Of a DNA stretch of 64,000 nucleotides, positions 1 through 56,000 are shown one piece after another. Position 1 is the first letter of the stretch. Every line of letters begins with the position of its first letter. The stretch lies in IMG/VR virus record IMGVR_UViG_2571042390_000001; one strand, written 5' to 3'. Source of the DNA: a virus. Lineage: Duplodnaviria > Heunggongvirae > Uroviricota > Caudoviricetes. Under the pieces are notes generated by a model. It was not told where the DNA came from. It was given only the letters and a program-made list of their open reading frames with translations, and made no database searches. The translations under genes were made by a program, and so were the position numbers.

Positions 1-16
1 CGGCAACGGAAGGAGC

Positions 17-2674
17 ATGGGTATCTGGCGTGCCTATGAGCAAGGGCAGGCGGATGAATATCGCCAGTACCTGATCGATCATGCAAAAGAGTTTGGTCTG
101 AATCCTGACGACATTTCACAAATGTCTATGCCCGTATTGGTGCGAGAAAGACTCACAGATGTAGACCGCGCACAATTTGCCCGCGATTCAAACATCAGCG
201 ATCTGCAAGAGATGGCTGCAAGTGAAAAAGCGTATGCGGATGCGCAATTTCTCACTGAGAGCGTCATGGCGCTATTTAATCCTTCAGATGATGGAAATCT
301 ACTGGCGCGGTCCAATGATGCGTTTATTCGTGCGTTTTTGCGCGAAATAGGTGATACGGCGACGGCAGGTTTGCTTACTGCCGATGGGCGTCCAACGAAA
401 CAACTTATCGACCGCATCCAGAATGCAATTTTTGCCAAAGCGTACAAGGATGAAAGGCTTGTTCGGCTGGTGGCGGAAGAGCCAGATCCGGAAATGCGTA
501 ACATTCTTACCGCATTAAATACGGCAGCCAGCGATTTTGCGCAAATGCAGTCGCTTTCAGGTGATGTTCACCATGACACGGTAACCGGACTGGTAGACGG
601 TATAGAGCAATTGAATGGTCTGGATAAACAGGCTATTGCCGCGCTACAGGAAGCAATTAACCTTGTTCGTGAAGCAAAAGATAACGGTCAGGCAGTAGAA
701 GAGGTGATCGCACAGCGTGGATTGTTTGGAGATAGCACTCCGGAAGCAGAAGCGCTTGCTCTGTTTATTGTTGCCAACAACCGAAGCGCTAAGCGAATGG
801 GGGCAGCTTTCAAGAAACTGGCGCAAAAAATTAACGATGAACTTATTCACCAGCAACAAGCGTTAGGCGATATGTTCGGCGGCGGAGATGTCGATCTGCG
901 TAGCATTTTATCTGCCGTTTCTGATGAAATTGAGGCTGAGTATGGCGAAGGTAAAGGGCTTAATTTCGCCATGTTTGAATCGGTTTCAGGAGAGGTCGAA
1001 CCATACATTTCAAAGCTAATTGCTGATGCGACCAGCGTGGAGGACTTGATCCGAATCGTGAAGGTGTCAGAAAAAATTAAGGAGTCCGCAAAAAAAATAA
1101 AGCGCAATGTATTTTTGGAACTTGGTTTTTATATTCGCAATGTCACCGTTAATGAGATTAAGGAGTGGGCTAAACGTTATGGATACAGCGACGCTGTGTT
1201 AACAACGATGTTATTGTCTTATCAACGCAGCAATTTTTATGCTAACGCACTGCGTGACGCGATTGAAAAAGGAGATGAAGCTCCTTCGCTCGCAGATGAA
1301 AGAAATATTGATTGTGATATTGAAACGTTTTGCAACATATCAGAAGAAGGCGTGCCCGCTGAACAATTTATACGTGTTTTACATAATGCAGCAAAACATA
1401 TTCCTGATGACTTTAGTATTGATGAATTGCGCAATGGTTGTCTTGTTTGGTTAGGTAACTATTTAAAATCTCCAGCGTCTATTGCAGAGAAAACAGCTTT
1501 AAGATTTAGAAAGGAAATGAATAAAGCTGGAAGCGCAGAAGAGATGGTGTGCATAATCCAAAATACTTTGAAGTTATTCAAAAAGAGCTTGCATAATATC
1601 GACGATATTATGGCGGCTGGTAGGAAAATAACAGCCAGTGTCGGAGTTAGCTCTGAACTAACGGCAGAGGAGATCGCTGATGCGTATATTGAGACACTTG
1701 TCAGGCTTAAGGAGATAGTGGAATTAGCAGAGCATTCCTCATATTACGGAATCAAGGAGCGTGTTGACTTTACTATAGAACAAATCAATAAAGTTAGGTC
1801 AAATAAGGAAAAACTCACTGACTACCTTGCTGAGGTTTTGCACCAGAATGATCATGGGATTGGATATGATCTGAAAAAAATGCTTGTTTTTAATCTGGAC
1901 ATACCGGAAGACTTGCAAGCAGAACTATATGAAATAGCTTCATTAACACGTGGACAAAAAGCCTATCCTAATGCGCTTGAAAATGTAGTACATAAAAAAG
2001 TCAGAGCCGCATTTGACATGATTCTTGAATCGTCAAATGTGTCACATGACCAGTCTAAGGAATGGAGTCGTGGGATTGCTATTTCTGATGAAGCAGAGCA
2101 GTTAAGTGGTCACGATAATGAAACTTTCTCCCGTAAAGCATACAGTATTCGCGAGACGATTGAAAAAGCCTATATTATTTCAGGAGGGACTTTATCTACA
2201 TTAAAAAATATTAACCACAAGAACAATGTTCGTGCTTTTGCAAGTCGAAATGGGAATATAACAATTGATGCTAATAGTGATCACGAGCGTGTATTATGGC
2301 ATGAAATAGGTCACCATATAGAACATTCAAATCCCCATCTATTGGAGAGGGCCAAAGCCTTCATTAAATCAAAAACTAACGGTAAAGTTTCTTATCATAA
2401 TATTGGTAGCCGTGGCAGTGCTGAGTATTTGGTGCGAACCGACCTAAGTCATGGATATATGTCTAAAATTTATATGGAAAATACGGTAAGTTCTGTCAGC
2501 GGCAGATTTATATCAAAGCCACCTGCATTAAGCAATTGCAGGGCGACTGAGATTTTTTCTATGGCCTTGCAGATGTATGCCGATCCGGAGCAGGCGACTA
2601 ACTCTGTATTAAACAATGACGGCGTGCTGGAATTTTTCTTGGGATGTATGAAGGAGTTGCAAAATGAAGTATAG
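17..2674 (+). CDS. Large hypothetical protein (885 aa) with zincin-like HExxH motif (HEIGHH); possible virion-associated or anti-defense protein
   Basis: Long ORF with AGGAG RBS just upstream of ATG at 17; HEIGHH encoded at about 2300-2317; no other domain recognised. Confidence 0.55.
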   Translation: MGIWRAYEQGQADEYRQYLIDHAKEFGLNPDDISQMSMPVLVRERLTDVDRAQFARDSNISDLQEMAASEKAYADAQFLTESVMALFNPSDDGNLLARSNDAFIRAFLREIGDTATAGLLTADGRPTKQLIDRIQNAIFAKAYKDERLVRLVAEEPDPEMRNILTALNTAASDFAQMQSLSGDVHHDTVTGLVDGIEQLNGLDKQAIAALQEAINLVREAKDNGQAVEEVIAQRGLFGDSTPEAEALALFIVANNRSAKRMGAAFKKLAQKINDELIHQQQALGDMFGGGDVDLRSILSAVSDEIEAEYGEGKGLNFAMFESVSGEVEPYISKLIADATSVEDLIRIVKVSEKIKESAKKIKRNVFLELGFYIRNVTVNEIKEWAKRYGYSDAVLTTMLLSYQRSNFYANALRDAIEKGDEAPSLADERNIDCDIETFCNISEEGVPAEQFIRVLHNAAKHIPDDFSIDELRNGCLVWLGNYLKSPASIAEKTALRFRKEMNKAGSAEEMVCIIQNTLKLFKKSLHNIDDIMAAGRKITASVGVSSELTAEEIADAYIETLVRLKEIVELAEHSSYYGIKERVDFTIEQINKVRSNKEKLTDYLAEVLHQNDHGIGYDLKKMLVFNLDIPEDLQAELYEIASLTRGQKAYPNALENVVHKKVRAAFDMILESSNVSHDQSKEWSRGIAISDEAEQLSGHDNETFSRKAYSIRETIEKAYIISGGTLSTLKNINHKNNVRAFASRNGNITIDANSDHERVLWHEIGHHIEHSNPHLLERAKAFIKSKTNGKVSYHNIGSRGSAEYLVRTDLSHGYMSKIYMENTVSSVSGRFISKPPALSNCRATEIFSMALQMYADPEQATNSVLNNDGVLEFFLGCMKELQNEV

Positions 2675-2957
2675 CATTGTGAGTCCCGCTGGGATTAGAG
2701 GGATTGTTGAATGCTCTGATGACGGCACATTGCGTATATTTGAAGGCGATATTTCGGAAGAAAATATTGCGCAAGATTTACGCTTTATCAACACAAATTC
2801 CGCAATGGGGATCGTGAATACCATTCATGCCGATGGGGTGTTTGTTCTGCGGAGCCTGGAAACTGTTGGCTGGGAGGTTGAGTGGCCAGAGGTGGAAGGA
2901 GATCCTGACGACGAAGACGATACTGGCGAATCATATCAAGACATTGATGTGAATTGA
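2664..2957 (+). CDS. Hypothetical acidic protein (97 aa)
   Basis: Start overlaps end of upstream ORF; acidic C-terminus; followed by terminator. Confidence 0.4.
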   Translation: MKYSIVSPAGIRGIVECSDDGTLRIFEGDISEENIAQDLRFINTNSAMGIVNTIHADGVFVLRSLETVGWEVEWPEVEGDPDDEDDTGESYQDIDVN

Positions 2958-7674: not shown

Positions 7675-7899
7675 ATTAATTTGCTGTTTCTAAAACGGAA
7701 TGTATGATCTGCATCATCGACTGAAGTCATCCATTGCTGAAATTTTTAGTTGATCTTCCATGTTTTCAGGCTTATATTCATGCCGTCGTAGCAAATTCTG
7801 CGACCGGGTTTGACAGCCTGAATGTTAGTGCGGACAACCGCAGATTTCCGATATTGCGGTATTTTTGTGTCCGTAAACCGCGTTACGCCCGAATTATGG

Positions 7900-8000
7900 T
7901 GGGGCGTGATGGGGAGGCTTCGGCCTGCTGGTTTCACTAACGCCAGTCTGTCAACCCTGTCACGTCCTGCCACCTGTTTGACAGCGGGTGGCAGGTTGTT
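7900..8000 (+). ncRNA. Candidate c4-like antisense regulatory RNA (immI type), copy 1
   Basis: Non-coding region before icd-like gene; hairpin about 7966-7995; segments about 7921-7926 and 7935-7941 complementary to RBS region about 8007-8019. Confidence 0.35.
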
Positions 8001-8024
8001 AAACCTGTTAGTGAGGCCGTAACT

Positions 8025-8249
8025 ATGGTTAATGCCAATCCTTGCTCACGTCCAGAATTCATCTGGCGTTTCCACTCCCTGCAAAAACGCTGCGATCACT
8101 TCGCAATTGCCGCAACCGAAAAAGAAGCCCGTTCTCTGATCCCTGATCAGCATGGTGTTCTTACTGGTCGTTTCTCTACTTCCCCACAACCAAACACTAA
8201 TCCCTGGTATCGCAATATTACCAATCCCGGCATTGCGGAGGCTCACTGA
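8025..8249 (+). CDS. Icd-like small protein (host cell-division inhibitor Icd-like family)
   Basis: EFIWRF motif; stop overlaps start of the Rha/Ant-like gene; paralog at 48299. Confidence 0.55.
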   Translation: MVNANPCSRPEFIWRFHSLQKRCDHFAIAATEKEARSLIPDQHGVLTGRFSTSPQPNTNPWYRNITNPGIAEAH

Positions 8250-9671: not shown

Positions 9672-9822
9672 ATTTTTCTCCCGGTCATGGGTTAATAAGT
9701 AGGCAAACTATGGGGAGTATGTGATTTTGACGGTAGTATCGTCCCCCTGAAAATAACATTCTCCATACCCTCTCAACCGTACCGCATAGCGGAATTTTTT
9801 ACGGTTTAGAGGGGGAAATCCT

Positions 9823-12800
9823 TTGGACAAACTACTTCATTCAATCAGTGAAGCCTCCAGCTTAGGCGAACTGATTGAAATTGTTAGTCGGTTGCATAAA
9901 TTACGTGCTGTTGCGACCTTTGGCGTCAGGAAAGCCGATGGCGTCAGTATTCAGAAAACACGCCGGGCAGCAAACAATGCCGCAGTAAATCTTCTTAATT
10001 CCCTTCCGCCCGGCTTCGATGGGGCGAAATTAACTGACGAACAACGTCAGATTCTTGCTGGGTATACCGGTGAAGGCGGCCTGACAGATGGTGAGGGCAG
10101 CCAATACGAATACTACACGCCACAGTTTATGGCTGAAGGTATATGGGAGCTGTTTGCTGACTACGGTATTGATGGCGGTCACGTACTGGAACCATCAGCT
10201 GGCACGGGTATTTTCCAGGAGACAAAACGGCAGGGAATGATAATGACCAGCGCCGAGCTGTCTCCGATCTCCGGTCGAATCAACCAGCTGTTGCACCCGG
10301 AAGACGATGTGAACATTGGGGCGTTTGAGGCTCTGGCGGCGAAAGACGCAATGTATGACCACGCTGTTGGTAACGTACCGTTTGGCGAAGGCCGTTCCGG
10401 CGTTGCAGGGCTTGATCCGGCATATGCAAACGAGAAGAACGTTGGCAATTACTTTGTGCTGCGCACGATCGACAAGGTTAAACCTGGTGGGCTTATCGTA
10501 TTGGTGGTGCCGAATGGCATGACTGATGGTACGAAATACAAAAAATTGCGCGATAAAGTCAGCCGTAAAGCGGAATTTTTGGGCGCGCATCGTATGCCTT
10601 CCGGTACGTTCAGTGAATCAGGTACAGATACCGTGGTGGACGTATGGGTATTGCGTAAACACCCGGAAGCCTTCCTGGAGATGATCCCCGATACGGATGA
10701 TTCGACGCTCAAATCGGCAAACGTCCTTTGGGTTACCTTCCTCAAAGGGAAATGGTTTACAACCGAAGGGAAGCGATTTGTTTACGGCGACATGGAACGT
10801 ACCAGCTTCCGCAATACCCTAGTGGTGAAAAAAGACGGTCGTGTATCCAATGAGTCGATGAAAACCGCGCTATCTCGTCGCTTTGATAGTCGCATCAATT
10901 GGGATTTGCTCGGCGTAACTACTCAGGCATGGCAGGGCGCGAAAGTGGGCGATAAACGCCTTGTAGGCGGTATCTGGCATGAGTTTGATGGTCTGAAATG
11001 GGTTCAGGACACGACAACCAAATCCTCCGCGCTTGATGTAAGTCGATATGGTGTTTCGACGTTTGGCGATCTGCAGATCGCGTTCCAGTCAACAAACGGG
11101 ATTCTGGCTTTGTCATGGGACCAGATATCGGCGATCGCGTCCGACTATCCATCGGTTGTCAGTGATGAAGTGGCAGCAATGATTCGCTTTGCTGGCAAGC
11201 AGCGAGAAAAAGACAGGGAGCGCGTTATGCGCGGTGCACTGATAGGTCAGTTGATCAACAAGGCACTTGATTTGCGTAACCTGGGGGTGAACGTTGATGA
11301 CAAACTGGCAGATGCATCCCGCTTGGCGGCAGCAGAAGTTGCGAAGTATGGACCACCGCACGCGATTAAGCTGAATGGGCTTGCTGAAGCTGGCGCTAAA
11401 AACTGGATGACGTTCACTGGCAATGTGAAACAGGATGGTTCCACTTCTGACCTTCTGGCAGGGCGACTTGATGTAACGGATGGTGCTGCCGGTATTGACT
11501 TTACGCGTCCTGAACAAGTGATAGCACATCTTTTTAGTGATGTAGCCCTTAATCCTATAACGCTGGGCGACTTTCGTGAGGCGTTTGCTGGTGAACTGCC
11601 AGAGGACGACGACGCGGTCCTTGAATACCTGGCGAAATTTGATGATATCGCTATTGATGGGTATGGCTGTCTGCTGCCGATGGACCGCGCCACCAGCGGC
11701 GATGTTGCAACCAAAACAGCACTGCTGGTGGGCTGGCGTGATGCGTCAACAGGTGAGCAGAAAGCGAACTTTGAGCGTCAGTTGGCGAAAATCGAAGAGA
11801 AACGCATTTTCACGCCACTAAATAAAGTCACCGTTAATCTGAATGCCCGCTGGCTGGATCGCCGCTTGATAAAAGAGTTCCTGGCAGAGCAGGGCTATGA
11901 CGAGTTTAAGTACACTGAACCTGATCTGAAGGTCGTCGATGGCATTCTGGTATCTCCGGACGATTACGAAGGTAAGGACGGGGTATTTACCGGCTATCAG
12001 CTACGAACCGTAAACGGCAAAAACGGGAATGAGTTCAAGAAGGCCAACAATAAAGACGGCTTCCTGAACCAGTTAGAAAACTACCTGAACGGTGTTAAAC
12101 CGCGTGGGCAGAACGCTAACGAGTACCTGGATAAAATTGCTCAACTGGAAGTTAGCTTTAACGACTGGTTACGCACCCACCCGCAGGCGGATCAGATAGC
12201 CCGTGACTATAACGACGCATTCAATGGTTTCATTCCGTTCACACATTCTGACGCACCGCTTGGCCTGGAAGGGATTAGTGGAAAGCGCATTCCTCTGACT
12301 TATCAGAATGAAGAAGTTCGGCGCTTGTCAGAAGATGGGCGTGGCATCATGGGATTTGGTACCGGGCTGGGTAAAACCACGACCGCGCTTGCGCTTGAGG
12401 CGTATAACTTCGAAACAGGTCGCACTAAACGCACGTGTATTGTTGTTCCGAAGGCGGTTTATCAGAACTGGTATCACGAGGCACAGAGTTTCTACAGTGC
12501 TGATGCCTTCGCCAATATGATGTTTATCGGTTTGGATGAAGTTCGTGATGACAGCGGAAATATTCTGACCGCGCCGGTGCTTGATGAAAATGGCGAACCA
12601 CGCCTCGACAGTAACGGGCAGCCTCTTACCAGAAATGTTGTGAAAGAGTCCTCCAGCGCCGTTATCGTTCAGCGTATGAACATGATCCCGTCGTCAAATT
12701 GGCGAACGGTCATCATGACAAAAGAACAATTCGCGTCTATCCCGCTACGAGAAAAAACCATCGAGGAGAACTCACAGCAAGCTGTCTTTAATGCTGTGGA

Positions 12801-15800
12801 AATGGGGCGTCTTGACCTGGCGTCCGGTAAACACCGTGATGCGCAGAAGAAGAACAAGATTAAGGATCAGGCCGCGAATACCGGTACAACGAAGAAGCAG
12901 AATATCCCTTACTTTGAGGATATGAACTTCGATAGCGTGATTGCCGACGAGGGGCATAACTACCGCAACTCCTTTAATGCCGGGCGTGAAGCGGGACAAC
13001 TGGCATATTTGCCTAACCCGGCAGTATCCAAGATGGCCCGCGACATGGCTGTAAAAGCTGCGTACATGATGAAACGCAACAACGGGCGTGGTGTAGTCAT
13101 GCTGACGGCAACACCGCTGGTGAACAGTCCGATTGATGCCTTCAACATGCTGTCTACTGTCATTCCGCAGGAAGAGTGGATGCGTATGGGCATCATTACG
13201 CCTGATGATTTCGTTCGTGTGTTTGGCAAAACAGCCACAGTTCAGGTCCAGAAAATTTCCGGGGAAGTGGAAGAGAAGCAGGGGCTGGTGGGCTTCCAGA
13301 ACCTTGACGGCCTGCGTGGTATTTTCCATCGTTGGACCACTCTGAAGACTGCTGCAGATGTCGGAGCGACGGTTAAAATTCCCGACATCATCGAGAACAC
13401 CTTGCAGATCCCGATGACAGGGGAGCAGGAGACTGCTTATGAAGAGCTTCGTAAGCGTGCTCAGGAGTTAAGTCGCAATGATGAGCTGACAGTCGATGAA
13501 AACGGGCATATCACTAACGACAAACCGGATGATTTCATCTTCTCCATCATCCGTGACATGGATAAGGTTGCTATAGACCCGGATCTGTATGCCAGTGCGA
13601 TTACATTCCAGTTCCCCGTTGAGCTTGCAGACCAGGTAAAAGCTATTGCTGATGCCTTGCCAAAAGTAGCTGGCGGTAAAGTGGCAGATGATGTTGATGA
13701 GGCCGAGGAAGACGGCGCTGGCGGGCTGGTCAGTACGCGTACCAGCAAGGTAGTGAAGACCGCTTTTAGTGAACATCCGACGCATGTTGAAATACGTGCC
13801 AGCATTGAACTGGAAGCTGAAATACTGAAGGCCATTGCGGCTGCCGGCATTGATATGCAGCAGGTGTCGCACCCCATCCCGCCGAAGTATGCCGCGCTGA
13901 TCGAAAATCTTCGTGAAGGTCTGAAGAACGGTAAGCAGATCGTCTTTATTGATGAAAAAGCCCAGCACCAGAAGCTGCGCCGTATTATCGCCAGTGCACT
14001 GCAAATGCCGGAGCAGGAGATTGGCATTATCAATGCGACGACAGTTAGCCAGGCTGGTGGCATCAAGCTGAAGAAGGTGAATAAGCCGACCGAACCTACT
14101 CCAAACAAAAACGGTGAATACAAAGAAGGGGCATGGGAAACCTACTACAGCAAACTTGCCCAATATGAGGATTATCTCTCCGCTAAAAATGATGCTGGCC
14201 TTGAGGGCATGGAAGGTATTGCCGCCGACTATAACGAAGGTCGCACGCGCATCATAATCTGTAACAAGAAGGCTGAAGTAGGTATTAACCTGCACATCGG
14301 GACAACCGATATCCACCACCTGACACTACCCTGGACACCAGCCAGTATCGACCAACGAAATGGGCGCGGTGCGCGCGTAGGTTCACCGCAAGAAAAGGTC
14401 AATGTTCACTACTATTGTGGCAAAGGCACATTCGACGACTTCCGTCTGGATACGCTGAAACGTAAGAAAGACTGGATCAAGATGGTGATGACATCCGACA
14501 TGTCAGAGATCGCCAATGGTGATGCGGATGATGCTGATGAACGCGCCATTATGCTGGCGGCAAACCCGGAAGAACGCCGCGCAATCATGGCTCGCCAGGC
14601 GCAAGAGCGTGAAGAACGTCTGAAACTGAAAGCACAGCGCGAGGCCAACAATGCTCTCGATATCTACCTGAAAGCGGCAAACGCCGCCGGAAAAGATATC
14701 GGCATGATGGAGACAGAACTGAAAAGCGCGATGGAACAGATAGAGTATTACCAGCGCAATCTTGACGACCTGATAAAAGCGGGTACGAACAGGAATGGGC
14801 AAAAATACGCGCTTGAGCAGTTGAGTAGCTACAGAAAACGTGCGCGGGTGCTGCGGTTTGCGATCACCAGGGCAAAAGACGCGGATACCATAATGAAACG
14901 CTCTCGTGGTGATGTGGAGCGCGCTATTAAGTCTGGTGTGCTGGATATCAGTATCGATGTTATTCAGAACCCACAGGAATATATGCGCACTGACAAGAAT
15001 ATCCTGTTGCATAAAGGTAGTTATTACCGTGCAGTCATTGATGATCGCGAAACAACAGCGATTGTCCGGGTGGAAAAAATTGACGGTGAAAAAGCACAAT
15101 ACCTCTGCCGTATCGCCTGGCTGGATAGAGCAAGTCGTTACGCTCGAGCACCGGGGTCAATCGTTACATTGCCGTTTGACTCTGTGATTGAAGCGGTAAC
15201 TTTTGAAGAGGGGGTAGCTGAATCGCGCGCAACGGCTGCGCGTGGTGTTCAGTGCCACCAGCTATCAACAATACTTACTCGCGATCAGTTCTATGATGCT
15301 ATTCGCAATGGGGTAATGAATGTTATTGCTGGTAAACCTGGTAATGCATGGGGCGGTGGGTCAGCTATTAAATACTGGGCATATCGCACAGATGATGGTC
15401 AGATCGCGCTGTCATCGGCCTATGATGGCGTGATAGGCCAAAAAATCGGGCGAGCATCGGATATAGCACCTGAGCGATGGATATATCCTGATGGCAACGA
15501 CGAGGCGCTGAAGCGTGAAGTGGCAAAAATACAAGCCAGTGATAACCCGCTGAATATCGTGGACGGCGAGGGATTCCTCCAGGCATTGTATGGGTATGAT
15601 TACACCCAGGGAATGCAGGCATGGGGCGCACAGGCAACGATGGATGATGTTGCCCATGAGTTCGAAAACTGGATGGCTGGGCGTGGTCTGTCAGGTCGTT
15701 CGCTTAATAAAGTCACTTCTGAAGATATTCTTAGCTTGTTCCGCAAACCGTCCGGAGAAGGTCTGGAATCATTCTGGAGGACCGTGCTGGCATACCGTTT

Positions 15801-16659
15801 ATTCCAGGGCAGGATGAAAGCCTTTAGCAATATCGATGATATTGAACGGATGTTTAATCAGGTCAAGATCGCGAAAATTAAGGCGAAGATCGAAAAAACA
15901 CGTTCTGCGCTGGTGGCCTGGCGCGATGCATTGTTTGAGCAATATAAATCACTCAGTGATGCAGATGGATGGGCGGCATTGGAACAGCTGGCGAATAATG
16001 GGGTAGATGGAGCGAAACTCGCCATTGTTCAGGCTGATAACCCCCTGGAATCACCGGCAGCACAGTGGATTAAGGTGGGGGCTGTCATCAATGCATTTGA
16101 TGAAAAACACATTAGTAAGGACGATTTTGCTGATGCTGTTTCTGTTAATCGCCTGGTAGAAATGGCTACCCGCCGCGCCCGTGAGTTGAAAGACGGCGAC
16201 TATGTGAATGAGTTGCCGGATACGCTCAAATCGGCAACGTGGCAGGACTATGTATCGCTGAAAAACGGCGGGGCCACTGAATCAGAGATCGCGGAAAGGC
16301 TTGAGCAGGCTGAAAGCAAAAGAGAAGAGCAGGCGGCAGTGGCTGAAGCCAGAGCTGATGAAGCGGCGAATGATGACTATATCATTGTGGTTAATGATAA
16401 GCCGATTCGCGCTAAGGCGCGTGTTCGCGGGCGCTGGTGGAGCGTCAGCGAGGACGTTGGCGCGGTTTATCTCATTGCCGACCAACCAGGTTCCTCGACA
16501 ATACGGAACGCCAAAGACGCGATTAAGAAGATTGGCGGACGTTTCTGGAATTTTGAAGCAAACCCGGTTGCTGATGTGAACTTTGACCGTCCTGCATGGA
16601 TGGTATCTACGCGTTACTCGGTAGATGAACTGCGTAAAATAATCGCCGATGCGGCCTAA
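9823..16659 (+). CDS. darB: DarB-like antirestriction protein: N6-adenine methyltransferase fused to SF2 helicase (2278 aa)
   Basis: LEPSAGTG (SAM motif I), NVPFG (motif IV), Walker A GTGLGKT, DEGH box ADEGHNYRN, motif VI QRNGRGAR; TTG start with GAGGGGG RBS. Confidence 0.8.
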   Translation: MDKLLHSISEASSLGELIEIVSRLHKLRAVATFGVRKADGVSIQKTRRAANNAAVNLLNSLPPGFDGAKLTDEQRQILAGYTGEGGLTDGEGSQYEYYTPQFMAEGIWELFADYGIDGGHVLEPSAGTGIFQETKRQGMIMTSAELSPISGRINQLLHPEDDVNIGAFEALAAKDAMYDHAVGNVPFGEGRSGVAGLDPAYANEKNVGNYFVLRTIDKVKPGGLIVLVVPNGMTDGTKYKKLRDKVSRKAEFLGAHRMPSGTFSESGTDTVVDVWVLRKHPEAFLEMIPDTDDSTLKSANVLWVTFLKGKWFTTEGKRFVYGDMERTSFRNTLVVKKDGRVSNESMKTALSRRFDSRINWDLLGVTTQAWQGAKVGDKRLVGGIWHEFDGLKWVQDTTTKSSALDVSRYGVSTFGDLQIAFQSTNGILALSWDQISAIASDYPSVVSDEVAAMIRFAGKQREKDRERVMRGALIGQLINKALDLRNLGVNVDDKLADASRLAAAEVAKYGPPHAIKLNGLAEAGAKNWMTFTGNVKQDGSTSDLLAGRLDVTDGAAGIDFTRPEQVIAHLFSDVALNPITLGDFREAFAGELPEDDDAVLEYLAKFDDIAIDGYGCLLPMDRATSGDVATKTALLVGWRDASTGEQKANFERQLAKIEEKRIFTPLNKVTVNLNARWLDRRLIKEFLAEQGYDEFKYTEPDLKVVDGILVSPDDYEGKDGVFTGYQLRTVNGKNGNEFKKANNKDGFLNQLENYLNGVKPRGQNANEYLDKIAQLEVSFNDWLRTHPQADQIARDYNDAFNGFIPFTHSDAPLGLEGISGKRIPLTYQNEEVRRLSEDGRGIMGFGTGLGKTTTALALEAYNFETGRTKRTCIVVPKAVYQNWYHEAQSFYSADAFANMMFIGLDEVRDDSGNILTAPVLDENGEPRLDSNGQPLTRNVVKESSSAVIVQRMNMIPSSNWRTVIMTKEQFASIPLREKTIEENSQQAVFNAVEMGRLDLASGKHRDAQKKNKIKDQAANTGTTKKQNIPYFEDMNFDSVIADEGHNYRNSFNAGREAGQLAYLPNPAVSKMARDMAVKAAYMMKRNNGRGVVMLTATPLVNSPIDAFNMLSTVIPQEEWMRMGIITPDDFVRVFGKTATVQVQKISGEVEEKQGLVGFQNLDGLRGIFHRWTTLKTAADVGATVKIPDIIENTLQIPMTGEQETAYEELRKRAQELSRNDELTVDENGHITNDKPDDFIFSIIRDMDKVAIDPDLYASAITFQFPVELADQVKAIADALPKVAGGKVADDVDEAEEDGAGGLVSTRTSKVVKTAFSEHPTHVEIRASIELEAEILKAIAAAGIDMQQVSHPIPPKYAALIENLREGLKNGKQIVFIDEKAQHQKLRRIIASALQMPEQEIGIINATTVSQAGGIKLKKVNKPTEPTPNKNGEYKEGAWETYYSKLAQYEDYLSAKNDAGLEGMEGIAADYNEGRTRIIICNKKAEVGINLHIGTTDIHHLTLPWTPASIDQRNGRGARVGSPQEKVNVHYYCGKGTFDDFRLDTLKRKKDWIKMVMTSDMSEIANGDADDADERAIMLAANPEERRAIMARQAQEREERLKLKAQREANNALDIYLKAANAAGKDIGMMETELKSAMEQIEYYQRNLDDLIKAGTNRNGQKYALEQLSSYRKRARVLRFAITRAKDADTIMKRSRGDVERAIKSGVLDISIDVIQNPQEYMRTDKNILLHKGSYYRAVIDDRETTAIVRVEKIDGEKAQYLCRIAWLDRASRYARAPGSIVTLPFDSVIEAVTFEEGVAESRATAARGVQCHQLSTILTRDQFYDAIRNGVMNVIAGKPGNAWGGGSAIKYWAYRTDDGQIALSSAYDGVIGQKIGRASDIAPERWIYPDGNDEALKREVAKIQASDNPLNIVDGEGFLQALYGYDYTQGMQAWGAQATMDDVAHEFENWMAGRGLSGRSLNKVTSEDILSLFRKPSGEGLESFWRTVLAYRLFQGRMKAFSNIDDIERMFNQVKIAKIKAKIEKTRSALVAWRDALFEQYKSLSDADGWAALEQLANNGVDGAKLAIVQADNPLESPAAQWIKVGAVINAFDEKHISKDDFADAVSVNRLVEMATRRARELKDGDYVNELPDTLKSATWQDYVSLKNGGATESEIAERLEQAESKREEQAAVAEARADEAANDDYIIVVNDKPIRAKARVRGRWWSVSEDVGAVYLIADQPGSSTIRNAKDAIKKIGGRFWNFEANPVADVNFDRPAWMVSTRYSVDELRKIIADAA

Positions 16660-17529: not shown

Positions 17530-18024
17530 TTGTTGTTATTATTTCGCATATTTACTATCAATGGGTGTGTTAGAAAAATAGCGCGAAAGAGAAGGCGTCG
17601 CAGTGAATATTCTGAAACATCCCCACATGCCGCAGCTCTTAGAGAACTGGAGAAAAACCCAGATCTAATCAAAAGGAACCATGAGCATTACGAGCAGGTT
17701 CGCGTCCTGGACTGGATGTATCGCAATATGCGTTATGTGTATGAGCATACTCACGCCACTCCAAACGGTGGCCTGCGAGGCATAAGGACGGCAATAAAAA
17801 TGGTGGCAGAGGGCCAAAAGAAGGGATATCCCGATCTTTCTATAGACCTTGCTTGTGGGGGATACCACGGAATGCGCATTGAGATGAAACATGGGAGAAA
17901 TCGCCTGACTCCCGAACAACTCGTCTGGATGACTCGCCTCACAGAAGCCGGTTACTACTGCTTTGAGGCGCGCAGTGCCGCTGAAGCCATAAAAGCTATC
18001 ACGGAGTATGTTTGTCTTGATTAA
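17530..18024 (+). CDS. VRR-NUC domain nuclease-like protein
   Basis: KKGYPDLSIDL ... RIEMKHGRNRLTPEQ PD-(D/E)xK-type motifs; true start is probably internal to the track ORF. Confidence 0.5.
   Translation: MLLLFRIFTINGCVRKIARKRRRRSEYSETSPHAAALRELEKNPDLIKRNHEHYEQVRVLDWMYRNMRYVYEHTHATPNGGLRGIRTAIKMVAEGQKKGYPDLSIDLACGGYHGMRIEMKHGRNRLTPEQLVWMTRLTEAGYYCFEARSAAEAIKAITEYVCLD
17568..17576. promoter_or_regulatory. Operator-like motif (TGTTAGAAA)
   Basis: Core motif in 5' region of the VRR-NUC ORF. Confidence 0.4.
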
Positions 18025-21092: not shown

Positions 21093-21167
21093 GATGGTGT
21101 AGCTCAGCGGTAGAGCAGTTGGCTGTTAACCAACTGGTCGGTGGTTCGAATCCACCCACCATCGCCA
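21093..21167 (+). tRNA. tRNA-Asn (anticodon GTT)
   Basis: Cloverleaf: acceptor GATGGTG/CACCATC, T-arm GGTGG-TTCGAAT-CCACC, anticodon loop CTGTTAA, 3' CCA. Confidence 0.8.
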
Positions 21168-21172
21168 ATTTA

Positions 21173-21259
21173 GGGGAGTTAGTCCGTAGGGGTAGCGGGG
21201 TAGACTGTAAATCTACTGTCATTGCGACTCGGGTGGTTCGACTCCATCACTCCCCACCA
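21173..21259 (+). tRNA. tRNA-Tyr (anticodon GTA), long variable arm
   Basis: Acceptor GGGGAGT/ACTCCCC, anticodon loop CTGTAAA, type II variable arm, 3' CCA. Confidence 0.7.
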
Positions 21260-21263
21260 AATT

Positions 21264-21339
21264 GCCGGTTTAGCTCAGTTGGTAGAGCAGTCGCTTTGTA
21301 AGCGAATGGTCAGCGGTTCGATCCCGTTAACCGGCACCA
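21264..21339 (+). tRNA. tRNA-Thr (anticodon TGT)
   Basis: Acceptor GCCGGTT/AACCGGC, D-arm TAGCTCAGTTGGTAGAGC, anticodon loop TTTGTAA, 3' CCA. Confidence 0.8.
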
Positions 21340-21408
21340 ACACAACAGGTAAGAGCATTTGTAGAGTTCGACTCTCTACCGTGGGCTTTTTCCCGCGATG
21401 CGAGCCAT

Positions 21409-21439
21409 AAATGCTCTTACCGTTGTGATGAAGTGCAGC
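21409..21439. repeat. tRNA-array-associated repeat, copy R1
   Basis: aaatgctcttaccgttgtgatgaagtgc; 3' strand of a long hairpin that follows tRNA-Thr. Confidence 0.4.
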
Positions 21440-21650
21440 TCTTTGAAGCAACCAGAAGATAAGCATCTGGCTTCACAACATAAACCGCAGGAACGACCAA
21501 TAAACGGTAGTCCGTATGGAGAACACCCCGTTGAGGAAGAGGTCTGGCCGGAACCGTAACCGGCACTACAACGTTGAGAACACTGGCGTAACGGGGTCAT
21601 ATCCCAATCTACGAATAAATGTTGCGTTGCAGCGTGACAACCAGTGTTCT

Positions 21651-21674
21651 CAACATTGTGGTGAATGCGCAGGC
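21651..21674. repeat. tRNA-array-associated repeat, copy R2
   Basis: caacattgtggtgaatgcgcaggc; preceded by inverted repeat gttgagaacactgg/ccagtgttctcaac. Confidence 0.35.
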
Positions 21675-21793
21675 TGATGCGCGAAAGACATTGCAGCTAT
21701 TGCGGAAAAGAGCTGTTCGGCGGGGCAATTAAACGCCCGTGAGAGTCTGAAATAACCGCAAGCCGGAGATCAGCACCGGTCGCCACAATAACG

Positions 21794-21880
21794 GGAGAGT
21801 AGGGAGCATGGTGCTCAAGCGGTCTTGAAAACCGTCCCATTGCGCAAGCGATGATGGTTCGATTCCATTACTCTCCGCCA
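21794..21880 (+). tRNA. tRNA-Ser (anticodon TGA), long variable arm
   Basis: Acceptor GGAGAGT/ACTCTCC, anticodon loop CTTGAAA, type II variable arm, T-loop TTCGATT, 3' CCA; position 8 atypical. Confidence 0.6.
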
Positions 21881-21974
21881 GTGCAACATTAAGGGTATTT
21901 GGCTAATTAAGCGAATGCCGGAAGCAGAACCGGATCACCAAATGCGTACAGGCGTCATCGCCGCCCAGTCAGCC

Positions 21975-22004
21975 AAATGCTCTTACCATTGCGGTGAATG
22001 CGGC
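21975..22004. repeat. tRNA-array-associated repeat, copy R3
   Basis: aaatgctcttaccattgcggtgaatgcggc; follows tRNA-Ser. Confidence 0.4.
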
Positions 22005-22171
22005 TAAGCGCACGCGGAACAGTTAAAACAGTAAAGGTGGTCTTTTTACTGGCGTAACGAGAATCCATAAGTGATCCGGCGTTAATTGTTAACTGGTTAA
22101 CGTCACCGGGAGGCGCCCGGCACCGCAACCTAACAGCAATGGCGTTTTGTCTTAAAAGGTGGCTGCAAGTG

Positions 22172-22300
22172 ATGGATTTTTGGGCGTTTGCCGATAAAAA
22201 CCCGGAGTGGACATTATTGTTTCTGCTGGTGGTTGCATACGGGGTAGAGCAAGCGGCAAAAGCCTTACGCGGTTCTGGCAAAAAGCGTAAGCGTAATTAA
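22172..22300 (+). CDS. Small hydrophobic ORF (42 aa) inside the tRNA cluster
   Basis: AGGTGG RBS 8 nt upstream of ATG; predicted TM segment WTLLFLLVVAYGV and basic tail; below track size cutoff. Confidence 0.25.
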   Translation: MDFWAFADKNPEWTLLFLLVVAYGVEQAAKALRGSGKKRKRN

Positions 22301-22309
22301 CAGTAATCT

Positions 22310-22385
22310 GGCCCTTTAGCTCAGTGGTTAGAGCGGGCGACTCATAATCGCACGGTCACCGGTTCAAGTCCGGTAGGGGCCACCA
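22310..22385 (+). tRNA. tRNA-Ile2-like (anticodon CAT; may read AUA after lysidine modification, or be tRNA-Met)
   Basis: Near-identical in outline to E. coli ileX-type tRNA: GGCCC(T)TTAGCTCAGTGGTTAGAGC ... CTCATAA ... GGTTCAAGTCC ... CCA. Confidence 0.75.
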
Positions 22386-47497: not shown

Positions 47498-48091
47498 TTT
47501 TAAGTTGAATTGAAAAACTCTCCGATGTACATTCACTACCGATTGGCACACCGGTCAACTTTTTGAGACAAACTGTTTAGTTTTTCGTATTATTGCCTCC
47601 GCCATACCTATGGCGGTGCAATATAGGTGGCTGAAAAGCCCCCGTTGACTCACGGTGTTCCAGCCTTTATTGCGCCGCCACCAGACCGTGGAACAGTCGA
47701 TGGCGGCTCCGAAAGCAAGGAGTCACAACACTATGAACAACTACAGTCTTTTCCCATCACTCGTCTTCCACCACTCACGCGATAATCTGCATTCTTTGCT
47801 CGCGCCGGGGGTGTCAAAATGACTGTTCGCTACCTCAACTTTCAAATCAAGAACATTACTGGCGGTTGCTATGACTGGTTTGTCACTCTCGGAAAAGAAG
47901 TGATCACCGGGAAGCTGGATGAAGTGAAAGCTAAAGCAATGGCCTACGCCTGCAAGCAAGTCAGGAAGAAATCCGCCAAAGCATAAAATACTGACTGTTG
48001 CGCCCTGGCATTATCGTGGGGTATATTTCTACGGCACCTTAGAAAAACGGGTGCCGGGATTGGAACCCCGGATAATGTCAAAGGCGACACA

Positions 48092-48113
48092 GACGCCGAA
48101 CGCGTCTTTTTTT
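48092..48113 (+). terminator. Rho-independent terminator
   Basis: gacgc/gcgtc stem followed by T7. Confidence 0.5.
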
Positions 48114-48149
48114 GTGTCATGCCATCGCACAGCCATACTTAGCGTTTAG

Positions 48150-48260
48150 CTCAGAGATCAATGGTAGTGCTGGCTGGGCTGCCGAAAGGCAGGCCGGTTC
48201 CCTTTGACGCCGGTAGTTCCAACCCAGTCAGTGCTACCGCCATTGAGATTGGAACCTCAC
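48150..48260 (+). ncRNA. Candidate c4-like antisense regulatory RNA, copy 2
   Basis: Segments at about 48187-48191 and 48200-48206 complementary to RBS region of icd-like gene 2 (about 48280-48294). Confidence 0.35.
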
Positions 48261-53111: not shown

Positions 53112-54297
53112 TTTCCTGAAAAACCAGGACGGGCGCTATATCACTGACGGTCTGTCCTCTAAGGACTTCACGCGTATATTCGAGCTTATCAGGAAAGAAC
53201 AAACCCGTAAGCGCCGACAAGCTCACCGGACGCTGACGCCAGGTAGACTGAGGAACAAATCCGCCGAAGATATTCTCAAGTTAGGGAAGAAAAAAGGCGG
53301 CACGTTCTTCACGCGAGACGACCTGAAAGGTTTCGAAAAGCTACGGAGTAAAACACGCGAAAAATATGACAGCAAGACGGCTGGCATCACATACGCCCAG
53401 CTGGTGGCATCCAGCCAGGCAATCGATATTAAGCGTGCAAATAACGCCGTGGATGACGGATCTGGTATCAAAAGAGCTACCCCCGTATCTCTTCGCCACA
53501 ACGTGATTAATATCCGCGTAGAAGCATCGGATATATCCGTCCACCAGCACCATATCGTCCGGATACGCTTTGAAGAATGGGATCAGATGGTCGATGACAT
53601 CGCAGAAGACGATAAATCAGCTCTCAAAATCACTAAATCACTGTGCGCCGGGCGAGTGTCTTTCGATTGTGACTGTGGTCGTCATCAATACTGGTATCGT
53701 TACATCGCTACTGCGGGTAACTTTGCCCTGGCCCCGCCAAAAGAATACGCCTATCCAAAAGTTCGTAACCCTAAGCTACAAGGCGTCGCCTGTAAACACG
53801 TGATCCACTCAATGACGCGGTTACAGTCCGCAAGTTGGCAAATGAGTATTGCTCGTGCACTACAAAAGGCTGCAACGCAAATTGCATTTGGTGACGATCG
53901 CCGCCGTACAACCAAACACTTCTCAAAAGAAGACGAGAAGGAGTTTAATCGCAATCGTAGCAGTAAAACGAACGTTGACGCTGCCAAGCGAGAATGGAGA
54001 CTCTATCAGAAGCGCCAGGCCGCTTTAAGCACAAAACTGGCAAAGGACAACGGCAAGATTGACAAGCTACGTGACCAACTGACCAAGGCCAGAAAGTTGT
54101 CAGACGCACAGAAAAAACGGGCGGCAGCAAAAGAAGCGGCGTTGCAACGTGAGAAACAGAAAAACAAGGAGCTTCAGCAACGCCTGGCCGATCAGTTCGC
54201 ACTGAAGAAGCAGGCGTTTATTGATGCGCTTGTCATGGCAGGAACGCCACAAGAACATGCTGAAAAAATGTTTATGGCGTATGTAAAAAAAGCATAA
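53104..54297 (+). CDS. SWIM-like zinc-finger protein with basic coiled-coil tail (397 aa)
   Basis: CDCGRH ... (37 aa) ... CKHVIH CxC...CxH arrangement; Lys/Arg-rich C-terminus. Confidence 0.45.
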   Translation: MPDFLKNQDGRYITDGLSSKDFTRIFELIRKEQTRKRRQAHRTLTPGRLRNKSAEDILKLGKKKGGTFFTRDDLKGFEKLRSKTREKYDSKTAGITYAQLVASSQAIDIKRANNAVDDGSGIKRATPVSLRHNVINIRVEASDISVHQHHIVRIRFEEWDQMVDDIAEDDKSALKITKSLCAGRVSFDCDCGRHQYWYRYIATAGNFALAPPKEYAYPKVRNPKLQGVACKHVIHSMTRLQSASWQMSIARALQKAATQIAFGDDRRRTTKHFSKEDEKEFNRNRSSKTNVDAAKREWRLYQKRQAALSTKLAKDNGKIDKLRDQLTKARKLSDAQKKRAAAKEAALQREKQKNKELQQRLADQFALKKQAFIDALVMAGTPQEHAEKMFMAYVKKA

Positions 54298-54308
54298 ACC
54301 ACACATAT

Positions 54309-54340
54309 AGCCTGGTGGTCTATGCCAGGCTTTCACTTTT
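54309..54340 (+). terminator. Terminator-like hairpin between convergent genes
   Basis: agcctgg/ccaggct stem followed by T-rich run. Confidence 0.45.
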
Positions 54341-55112
54341 CTGATAAATCAGTTTGCATTTCAGAATACAATCGAGAAATATCAGAGAACAATTCATTAA
54401 AATCAGTACTATAGAATGATGTTTTCTTTATTGCTGCAATAAAATCATATAAATCCTGCGGAGTTTCAATTTTACATTTCCTATTCTCATACAGAGTAGG
54501 CAAAATGTGAATATTTTTATATGTAAGCGTTATGGCATCATCAAACCTTTCTTTCATTTTATCATATTTTTCTTTTTCATCTTCTATTTTGTTTAAAATG
54601 TCTTCCAGTTCTTTTTTTCTTTCATCCAGCTTTTGTTGGCTATAGCTAGCCTCTATTTCACGCTCAGCTCTTTTCTTGGCTCTTTTTGCTAATTTCTCTT
54701 TCTCGTTTTCGTCTGTTTTATTGTCCAAAATTTTTATTTTATAGTACACCTTAGTTGTAATGCAAGATACCGCAAGTGTAATTACTGGTGCCACAATCGA
54801 CGCAATCACACCATAGAAAAACGGCAAGAAAAAGTGGGCAAACCAAGGAGGTAAAATCTCGCCATCAAGAAATTGTATTTTTTCACCGGTAAAAACTATT
54901 GACAGAGTATATAGAACATCTTCTTTTGATTTGAACAAAATTAATATATCTCTCCAGTTAACAACCAGAAAAGATATAAAAATATATGCAAAAAGCTTAT
55001 TAAATACTTTATCTTTTATAACATATTCCATTGTATTCTTGACGGAATCAACAACGGACTCATTTTCTTTATCTGATTCAGATGTCTTCTTTACTGATGA
55101 ATCTGTACTCAT
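54333..55112 (-). CDS. AT-rich membrane protein with C-terminal charged coiled coil; candidate toxin or abortive-infection effector
   Basis: Long ORF in AT-rich DNA; predicted TM segments (FAYIFISFLVVNW; FFLPFFYGVIASIVAPVITLAV); K/E-rich heptads; directly downstream of HigA-like gene. Confidence 0.5.
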   Translation of the reverse strand: MSTDSSVKKTSESDKENESVVDSVKNTMEYVIKDKVFNKLFAYIFISFLVVNWRDILILFKSKEDVLYTLSIVFTGEKIQFLDGEILPPWFAHFFLPFFYGVIASIVAPVITLAVSCITTKVYYKIKILDNKTDENEKEKLAKRAKKRAEREIEASYSQQKLDERKKELEDILNKIEDEKEKYDKMKERFDDAITLTYKNIHILPTLYENRKCKIETPQDLYDFIAAIKKTSFYSTDFNELFSDISRLYSEMQTDLSEK

Positions 55113-55175
55113 ATATGCTACCAAATTTCTAGTATCTATTTTTTATAAAAACAGCGGTCATCCAGACCGCAAAAC

Positions 55176-55535
55176 TCAAACGCCAACCAGGCTTTCCAGT
55201 GGAATACCAAACTGGGCATGTAAACGACGAATCATAGGTAACGTCAAATTTCGTGTCCCATTAAGCACTTCGTAAACACGGTTTGACTTACCAATTGCCG
55301 GTTCCAGATCCTTCACGGTCAGTCCTTGCAGTTCCATACGGAATTTAATGGCCTCAATAGGTGATGGTGGCTCAATTGGGTAATGTTTTTTCTCGTACTC
55401 CTCAATGAGAAGACACATAACCTCAAAGAAATCACCTTCCGGAGTATTCATTTCCGGTTCGTTATCGAACATCGGTTCGACCGCACGCAGTGCGGCCTCA
55501 TAATCTTGTTCTGTACGGATAGGTTTAATGTTCAT
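55176..55535 (-). CDS. HigA (E. coli YgjM-type)-like antitoxin/HTH regulator, no cognate HigB adjacent
   Basis: C-terminal IGKSNRVYEVLNGTRNLTLPMIRRLHAQFGIPLESL parallels E. coli HigA (IGSKSMVSRVLSGKRKLTLEHAKKLATRFGISPALF) as recalled. Confidence 0.6.
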   Translation of the reverse strand: MNIKPIRTEQDYEAALRAVEPMFDNEPEMNTPEGDFFEVMCLLIEEYEKKHYPIEPPSPIEAIKFRMELQGLTVKDLEPAIGKSNRVYEVLNGTRNLTLPMIRRLHAQFGIPLESLVGV

Positions 55536-55591
55536 TAATTACAAAGGAAAGCCCACTTGCTAAGTGGGCTTTTTGTATGTGTTTTACTATA

Positions 55592-55930
55592 TCAGGCTGC
55601 TTTTTTATTCAGGTTCCGCTGAGAAATAAATTTTTCAGCAGTATTGATACGACTTAACTCTTCCTGAACGCGCATATCATTTTCGACTTCCCACAGATCT
55701 ACTGCGGTCTGAAGATTAATCCAAAAATCTACAGAAGTATCGAATGCTTTTGCCAGGCGATATGCCATATCCATCGTTAGCTTACGATTATTATTAACAA
55801 GAGCACTTACGGTGTTACGATGAACATGAAGTATTTCTGCTAACTCGTTGATCTTCAGCTCTAACGGCTCCAGGTATTCGTACAGCAGGATATCACCTAC
55901 GGTCGTCGGTTTTCTGGTTGCCTGTTTCAT
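55592..55930 (-). CDS. higA: HigA-family antitoxin (XRE HTH)
   Basis: TVGDILLYEYLEPLELKINELAEILHVHRNTVSALVNNNRKLTMDMAYRLAKAFDTSVDFWINLQ. Confidence 0.7.
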   Translation of the reverse strand: MKQATRKPTTVGDILLYEYLEPLELKINELAEILHVHRNTVSALVNNNRKLTMDMAYRLAKAFDTSVDFWINLQTAVDLWEVENDMRVQEELSRINTAEKFISQRNLNKKAA

Positions 55931-56000
55931 TTTTTGCCCTTACTAGCGTGCGTATTAAGTGGACTCTGGTCAGAACCCGGTCCGTAACCGGGTATCTGTT

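Follow-up and report, generated by a model that had tools for sequence, protein, structure and literature searches.

A DarB homolog of the D6 type in a P1-family plasmid prophage, with a C-terminal third confined to the DarB family

What does a single 6.8-kb open reading frame (ORF) do for a P1-like element, and does the last third of its product carry an activity of its own? These questions arise from a 64,000-nucleotide stretch of the virus record IMGVR_UViG_2571042390_000001 (hereafter the window), where a sequence-only reading had taken an ORF of 2278 codons for a homolog of DarB, the defense-against-restriction (Dar) protein that phage P1 carries inside its head. We find that the ORF is almost certainly a darB gene, of the type present in Escherichia phage D6, and that its product very probably shares the antirestriction role of P1 DarB, a judgement that rests on homology. 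The gene and its interpretation are already known from the GenBank annotation of D6, the P1 literature, and a survey of polyvalent proteins. The finding itself thus adds little, and its remaining value is comparative: DarB was discovered genetically almost 40 years ago, and recent literature still calls its mechanism undefined.

The ORF was recovered exactly as described, with 2278 codons and a translation free of internal stops. Its TTG is the earliest start possible downstream of the preceding stop, lies behind a Shine-Dalgarno sequence (GAGGGGG, 6-nt spacer), and aligns with the ATG of P1 darB (MDKL versus MNKL). The proposed match to P1 DarB (AAQ13985.1, 2255 residues), the founding and genetically characterised member of the family, was borne out over the full length: in BLASTP, residues 1-1935 were 43% identical (1524 bits, E = 0), and aligned globally, the two proteins matched to both termini at an overall identity of 40-43%. 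Evaluated per 100 residues, the identity was 38-68% up to residue 1600 and 19-26% from there to the end, with peaks in the methyltransferase and in both helicase lobes (57-68% in the SNF2 ATPase segment). The two proteins share the same domain order, all catalytic motifs, and a homologous C-terminal third, and the phrog_1685 profile matched the window protein end to end.

At the DNA level, the gene matches orf15 of Escherichia phage D6 (D6_15, ASR76325.1; GenBank MF356679) from end to end at 99.1% identity; the depositors of that record gave orf15 the annotation "defense against restriction; similar to P1 gene darB." Both genes encode 2278 residues with the same start and stop, and the two proteins show 11 real amino-acid differences. 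The nearest record of all was the E. coli plasmid p95_MLI121 (99.6% DNA identity). Counted at a query coverage of at least 80%, D6-type darB was carried by 113 PLSDB plasmids, whose hosts belong to Escherichia, Salmonella, Shigella, and Klebsiella, and by 93 of the 5426 complete E. coli genomes, where with few exceptions it sat on plasmids of ~90 kb. On the strength of these matches to D6 orf15 and to plasmids, we assign the window to a D6-like member of the P1 family, whose plasmid prophages reside in E. coli and Salmonella. The flanks are the same as in D6 from the portal gene through pmgS. Sequence comparison nevertheless distinguishes the element from phage D6 itself: only 72% of the first 9.8 kb of the window (upstream of the portal gene) matches D6, which has a 454-residue ddrB and two other ORFs where the window has a long P1-type ddrB and an hxr-like ORF.

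Both catalytic parts that had been read from the N-terminal and central regions were present (Table 1). The N6-adenine methyltransferase carries YYTP, EPSAGTG, and NVPF, and the superfamily 2 (SF2) helicase core carries GLGKT and TATP in addition to the DEGH and QRNGRGAR motifs named in the reading. Pfam matched SNF2-rel_dom (2.9e-12), ResIII, Helicase_C, and N6_Mtase, and by these matches we class the helicase as specifically of the SWI2/SNF2 type; it holds a variable insert at residues ~1250-1450. We built two AlphaFold2 models, one of residues 1-830 (predicted local distance difference test, pLDDT, 82.1) and one of residues 1541-2278 from an 18-sequence alignment. A Foldseek search with the first retrieved HsdM, M.TaqI, M.BseCI, CamA, BsaXI, and LlaBIII (E-values 1e-9 to 6e-6), and a PDB sequence search matched the domain to a type I HsdM (7eew), which, at the level of the predicted structure, confirmed a gamma-class adenine methyltransferase fold. 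The region between the two enzymes, residues ~300-820, yielded zero Pfam matches even at E ≤ 10, with a family column identity of 0.4-0.55.

This layout closely resembles the methylase-SWI2/SNF2 dyad of polyvalent proteins (PMC5512222), with LPD36-like helices bearing GxGG, an EcoKI/TaqI-like methyltransferase with TP and N-x-P-[FY] motifs, and a C-terminally fused SWI2/SNF2 ATPase. The LPD36 domain was described in that survey (Iyer et al. 2017, PMC5512222), and its residues Y81, G83, G85, and G86 are invariant across the DarB family. The difference lies in what surrounds the dyad: PHROG 10089, a polyvalent-protein profile of 4647 residues, adds other effector domains and matches DarB only in the methyltransferase and helicase, whereas the C-terminal module of DarB is confined to the P1-like DarB family.

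A methyltransferase coupled to an SF2 translocase in a single chain is also the layout of Type ISP restriction enzymes, and LlaBIII, which shares with HsdM and DarB the gamma-class N6-adenine methyltransferase fold, was among the fold matches. Together with partial NCBIfam and PADLOC matches to DISARM DrmD, DpdE, and ZorD, this could be taken to indicate a defence or restriction-modification-like prophage module (Type ISP, BREX, or DISARM-like) that guards the lysogen from other phages. We rejected this reading, to which we give hardly any credence. The matches were limited to the generic C-lobe of the helicase and scored 15-45 bits, whereas the curated cut-offs lie at 500-1100 bits (the best NCBIfam match, DrmD, reached 44.5 bits versus a cut-off of 610, and PADLOC matches reached at most 38 bits). 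Neither Pfam nor Foldseek found a nuclease domain anywhere in DarB, which also differs from HsdM and Type ISP enzymes in having no recognisable target-recognition or HsdS domain and no partner subunits, in the order methyltransferase then helicase, and in its virion and morphogenesis gene context. The gene has no partner defence genes, it is surrounded by genes for the head, for morphogenesis, and for Dar (prt, pro, ulx, pmgM, and pmgS), and its product is orthologous to a P1 virion protein.

What, then, is the C-terminal third? The sequence-only reading had found no assignable motif there and had allowed for additional activities. Pfam, run on the region as that reading had proposed, matched nothing from residue ~1540 to the end; the additional activities gained no support, as the region is homologous to the P1 C terminus and no enzyme fold was recognised in it from the model or by Foldseek. 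On their own, the C-terminal 738 residues aligned with the C terminus of P1 DarB at 23% identity over 734 residues (E = 5e-21), and within the last ~70 residues both proteins carry an AKDAIK..G..W....W motif. Because of this homology and the shared terminal motif, we regard the C-terminal third, from sequence comparison, as an integral homologous part of DarB and not an extra module. An exhaustive HMMER search with residues 1541-2278 against 1.84 billion representative proteins returned only 50 matches at E ≤ 1e-3. Short fragments of the same gene aside, most of these proteins were 2190-2360 residues long with the region at the same C-terminal position, and the remaining ones were shorter or partial proteins of ~550-1650 residues. 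The family emerged only from this exhaustive search, as a word-indexed protein search with the C terminus gave near-identical E. coli fragments only. The 10 clusters that we looked up came from contigs of up to ~100 kb, the size of a P1-like element, and two were named Vibrio proteins.

The model of this region (mean pLDDT 82.3; predicted template-modelling score 0.44) points to well-formed domains whose mutual arrangement is uncertain. It begins with long helices (to model residue ~165), continues with a small beta-barrel (180-252), a short stretch of mixed structure, and a helical domain, and ends in an alpha/beta domain. The Tudor/SH3-like assignment of the barrel is tentative, with Foldseek matches to Tudor domains at a template-modelling score of ~0.7 on the target and E-values of 0.15-0.8. 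The helical domain evolves fastest, with a family column identity of 0.19-0.33 and 19-24% identity to P1. The terminal domain, for which Pfam gave no match, bears the motif AKxxIK..G..(F/W)..W(W/M).(I/V), shared with P1, in which K2235 and W2259 are nearly invariant among 22 family members; we had considered this motif as a DUF5710-like domain and dropped the candidate because Pfam gave it no support. As modelled, the C-terminal module is non-catalytic in appearance and resembles a scaffold for interactions. It could conceivably set specificity, either toward type I (or BREX) complexes or toward Dar or capsid partners, although we consider this unlikely. If it did, D6-type and P1-type DarB would counter different sets of restriction systems, and the terminal alpha/beta domain and the Tudor/SH3-like barrel would be new target- or DNA-binding domains.

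How such a protein would act is framed by work on P1. P1 DarB resides inside the head at ~40-45 copies per virion (PMC9024508, PMC12810830, PMC12707154, PMC5512222), and is loaded last, through a pathway for which Hdf/DarA, DdrB, and Ulx are required (PMC9024508). P1 mutants in darB are sensitive to EcoB and EcoK, and the action of Dar is confined to cis (PMC12707154). For the methylase-SWI2/SNF2 dyad, Iyer et al. proposed translocation along the injected DNA with concurrent methylation (PMC5512222). The window protein is a single 250-kDa polypeptide comprising, in order, a putative targeting segment, a helical domain, a methyltransferase, a 500-residue region, a predicted translocase, and a 700-residue module. 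By analogy with P1, tens of copies would enter the procapsid late in infection via Hdf/DarA, DdrB, and Ulx, and would later be ejected with the DNA, shielding it in cis against EcoK/EcoB-like type I restriction. In the mechanism that we rank first, injected DarB would load onto the entering DNA and translocate at the expense of ATP, with the SWI2/SNF2 part acting as a double-strand DNA translocase, and would either methylate adenines or clear or block the type I enzyme before it cuts; the non-catalytic C-terminal module may serve for docking, either to the target or to partners from Dar or the capsid. We counted 6 EcoKI sites in the window (8.7 expected) and 11 EcoBI sites (10.6 expected), i.e., both at chance frequency, which argues that the element relies on active protection and not on site avoidance.

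Conservation and selection speak to whether catalysis is needed. In a 22-member alignment (31-54% identity to window DarB), catalytic residues were invariant or nearly so, and the mean column conservation was 0.5-0.7 over residues 50-1550 and 0.2-0.35 over residues 1600-2278. We estimated the ratio of nonsynonymous to synonymous substitution rates (dN/dS) for window darB by comparison with a pair of D6-type alleles that have diverged from it (nucleotide identities of 92.9% and 82.2%). The ratio was 0.02-0.10 over the first 1600 residues and 0.10-0.16 over residues 1601-2000, a range that extended to residue 2200 versus the closer allele (dS was saturated for residues 2001-2200 versus the more distant one). 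The C-terminal module thus evolves several times faster than the enzymatic core yet is clearly under purifying selection, and the catalytic residues lie under the strongest purifying selection in darB. The mosaic pattern of dS along the gene versus plasmid p2_035148 (~0.98 at residues 1601-1800, 0.50 at residues 401-600, and 0.12-0.25 in most others) indicates recombination between D6-type darB alleles within the gene.

Because the catalytic residues of both enzymes do not vary across a deep family and strong purifying selection acts on them, a catalytic mechanism is favoured. The same data bear on the proposal that many DarB copies cover the entering DNA or move along it, so that the type I enzyme is blocked, stalled, or displaced with no methylation at all, the methyltransferase domain serving as a DNA- or SAM (S-adenosylmethionine)-binding module. 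Reviewers have proposed physical obstruction from the cis-only action of Dar on co-packaged DNA (PMC12707154), and the ~40-45 copies of a 250-kDa protein carried per P1 virion would fit it, as would a C-terminal third that resembles an interaction scaffold (coiled coil, small barrel, and helical domain) more than an enzyme and the failure of Pfam and of Foldseek with the model to identify a separate target-recognition domain beside the methyltransferase. However, near-invariance of the SAM-binding, methyltransferase, and ATPase residues among 22 members that are 31-54% identical, and strongest purifying selection at exactly these residues, would be hard to explain if catalysis were dispensable. 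We therefore judge occlusion without catalysis doubtful, if well short of negligible.

To the model in which DarB translocates and methylates we assign a little under an even chance, and several points weigh against it or against its transfer to the window protein. The mechanism of DarB is called undefined in PMC11109961 and PMC12707154. The Pfam N6_Mtase match is marginal (20.7 bits versus a cut-off of 20.4), and motif IV reads NVPF in place of the canonical NPPY/F; other members of the DarB family have NPPF or NPPY there. Packaging and the antirestriction phenotype of the D6-type protein are extrapolated from P1. In P1 DarB, the N-terminal 30 residues suffice to target a reporter into the capsid (PMC9024508); in the window protein, these positions retain weak conservation with P1 (SSxxE[LI], residues 12-17), and residues 6-10 of the P1 targeting signal are not conserved, i.e., the N-terminal residues needed for P1 packaging are not the same. 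With its ~23% identity to P1, the C-terminal third may also have different partners or a different spectrum. Finally, Skutel et al. (2024) found that plasmid-borne darB relieves EcoKI restriction through its DNA (Chi and EcoKI sites) and not through the protein, and reported as "data not shown" that catalytic darB mutants acted alike (PMC11109961).

These last results raise the further possibility that darB acts through DNA only, as a Chi-rich gene that triggers RecBCD/ClpXP-dependent restriction alleviation. Indeed, cloned P1 darB with a premature stop still relieved EcoKI restriction via Chi and EcoKI sites (PMC11109961), and window darB contains 7 Chi sites, with 44 in the window versus 1.75 expected. 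Yet the published effect was seen on multicopy plasmids, Chi enrichment spans the window and is not specific to darB, and there are zero EcoKI sites within window darB. A 6.8-kb ORF that stays intact at a dN/dS of 0.02-0.16, and whose P1 product is packaged, is moreover kept for its protein, which a DNA-only effect fails to explain. We consider a DNA-only effect very improbable.

Table 1. Features of window DarB and of neighbouring genes. Residues are those of window DarB; every motif listed is also present at the equivalent position of P1 DarB.
Feature	Residues	Window position	Strand	Basis or remark
darB ortholog (D6 type)	2278 in total	9823..16659	+	TTG start, stop 16657-16659; ORF list and translation
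Putative capsid-targeting equivalent	1-30	9823..9912	+	two short helices predicted, residues 2-9 and 14-25
Helical LPD36 domain with GYTGEGG	~40-95	9940..10107	+	motif conserved in P1
GYTGEGG	80			LPD36 helical N-terminal domain
Predicted gamma-class N6-adenine DNA methyltransferase	~97-300	10111..10722	+	motifs, Pfam N6_Mtase, 7eew, Foldseek
YYTP	97			TP motif of methyltransferase
EPSAGTG	123			methyltransferase motif I, SAM
NVPF	184			methyltransferase motif IV, variant of NPPY
Conserved mixed alpha/beta region	~301-820	10723..12282	+	model pLDDT mostly 70-93
Predicted SWI2/SNF2-type SF2 ATPase	~821-1560	12283..14502	+	Pfam and motifs
GLGKT	848			helicase motif I, Walker A
DEGH	1042			helicase motif II
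TATP	1095			helicase motif III
QRNGRGAR	1511			helicase motif VI
Predicted long helices, coiled-coil-like, start of C-terminal module	~1561-1705	14503..14937	+
Predicted small beta-barrel, tentatively Tudor/SH3/KOW-like	~1720-1792	14980..15198	+	model strands 180-252
Predicted all-helical domain, fastest-evolving in DarB	~1894-2181	15502..16365	+	model helices 354-641
Predicted small C-terminal alpha/beta domain	~2186-2278	16378..16656	+	model 646-737, pLDDT 75-89
ddrB homolog, long P1-type form, cut by left window end		1..2674	+	phrog_2299 positions 123-994 of 995
CHAP-domain protein, 161 residues		9186-9671	-	Pfam 2.6e-7; divergent from darB
ulx homolog, 144 residues		16696..17130	+	46% identity to P1 Ulx, E = 7e-45
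pmgM homolog, VRR-NUC ORF		17530-18024		Pfam VRR_NUC 5.1e-6

The genes around darB supply counterparts of the P1 loading pathway. Directly 3' of darB lies a ulx homolog, as in P1, which matches the PHROG "Ulx-like anti-restriction" (2.3e-59) and whose D6 equivalent, D6_14, is annotated as similar to ulx; P1 Ulx aids the localisation of DarB (PMC9024508). P1 DdrB is a Dar component required for DarB incorporation, and the window contains a ddrB homolog whose reading frame is open up to the left window edge. It is 98% identical to D6 ddrB over 324 residues, followed by ~560 residues that are absent from D6. From its sequence, the Dar region of the element reads as a D6/P1-type mosaic. The genes hdf, darA, and ddrA fall outside the window, past its left edge; D6 has them immediately to the left, and so apparently does the closest plasmid, judging solely by the positions and lengths of its genes. 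An hxr-like ORF of 97 residues follows ddrB (window 1-2957).

Downstream, the order is darB, ulx, a small ORF, the pmgM homolog, pmgR-like ORFs, and the pmgS scaffold gene. The VRR-NUC nuclease-like ORF that had been noted downstream of darB is real, and it proved homologous to P1 pmgM, which has a putative role in morphogenesis. Nothing links this ORF to Dar, and ulx and the small ORF separate it from darB. The arrangement upstream differs from that in P1, where darB is divergent from prt and pro: here, prt and pro are co-oriented with darB, and repL, c4/icd/ant, and a CHAP gene lie between them and darB. Relatives of the CHAP-domain protein are annotated as TIGR02594 family or putative peptidoglycan hydrolase, and where its gene lies, P1 instead carries those for the portal and the protease. 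Between the CHAP gene and darB, a gap of 151 bp contains a late-promoter candidate (9719-9739, ATGTGATTT-N6-TAGTAT) that resembles the -22 and -10 elements of P1 late promoters (AAGTGATTT / AAGTGACTA). The pattern was not enriched in the window (6 versus 3.8 expected) and its spacing is unlike that of two P1 examples, so that a P1-type late promoter at this site is a weak lead. A sigma-70 scan stayed below the shuffled expectation.

Small additions to what is known of DarB are that its C-terminal third is family-specific and recombining, that residues 300-820 match no Pfam family either, and that the VRR-NUC ORF is pmgM. D6-type darB is common, keeps all catalytic residues, and is only ~23% identical to P1 in its C-terminal third, which makes it a natural chimera or swap partner for P1 DarB. 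Exchanges between the P1 and D6 proteins could disentangle the enzymatic core from a putative module for specificity or docking; they could also carry the idea of protein delivery by P1 (with an N-terminal capsid-targeting tag) over to a second phage.

Several other features of the window were observed. Chi sites (GCTGGTGG) occurred 44 times across 1-64000 (e.g., 466, 5834, 8302 ... 62592), compared to 1.75 from shuffles, and 20 of the 25 sites in the first 32.5 kb lie on the + strand. Chi enrichment is a reported property of P1, as cited in PMC11109961, and the D6-like element shares it. The cumulative GC skew has its maximum at ~33-34 kb, where the orientation of genes and Chi sites switches. 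Two separate loci for the C4 antisense RNA (Rfam RF01695) were found, at 7772-7977 (68.8 bits) and 48034-48244 (77.1 bits). The first has a c4-a1b1 target element, lies upstream of icd and an anti-repressor gene, and belongs to a stretch (7765-8136) with 93% identity to P1; ahead of the second lies an isrK-like RNA (RF01394, 61.3 bits). The pair suggests that a single element houses two modules for immunity/antirepressor control. Five tRNA genes (Asn-GTT, Tyr-GTA, Thr-TGT, Ser-TGA, and Met-CAT) are clustered at 21093-22385 on the + strand; in the stretch of the D6 record that was viewed, three of the five (Asn, Thr, and Ser) are annotated, on the strand opposite darB. Lastly, positions 54001-56000 form a low-GC stretch (0.389 versus ~0.48 elsewhere) with several short minus-strand ORFs.

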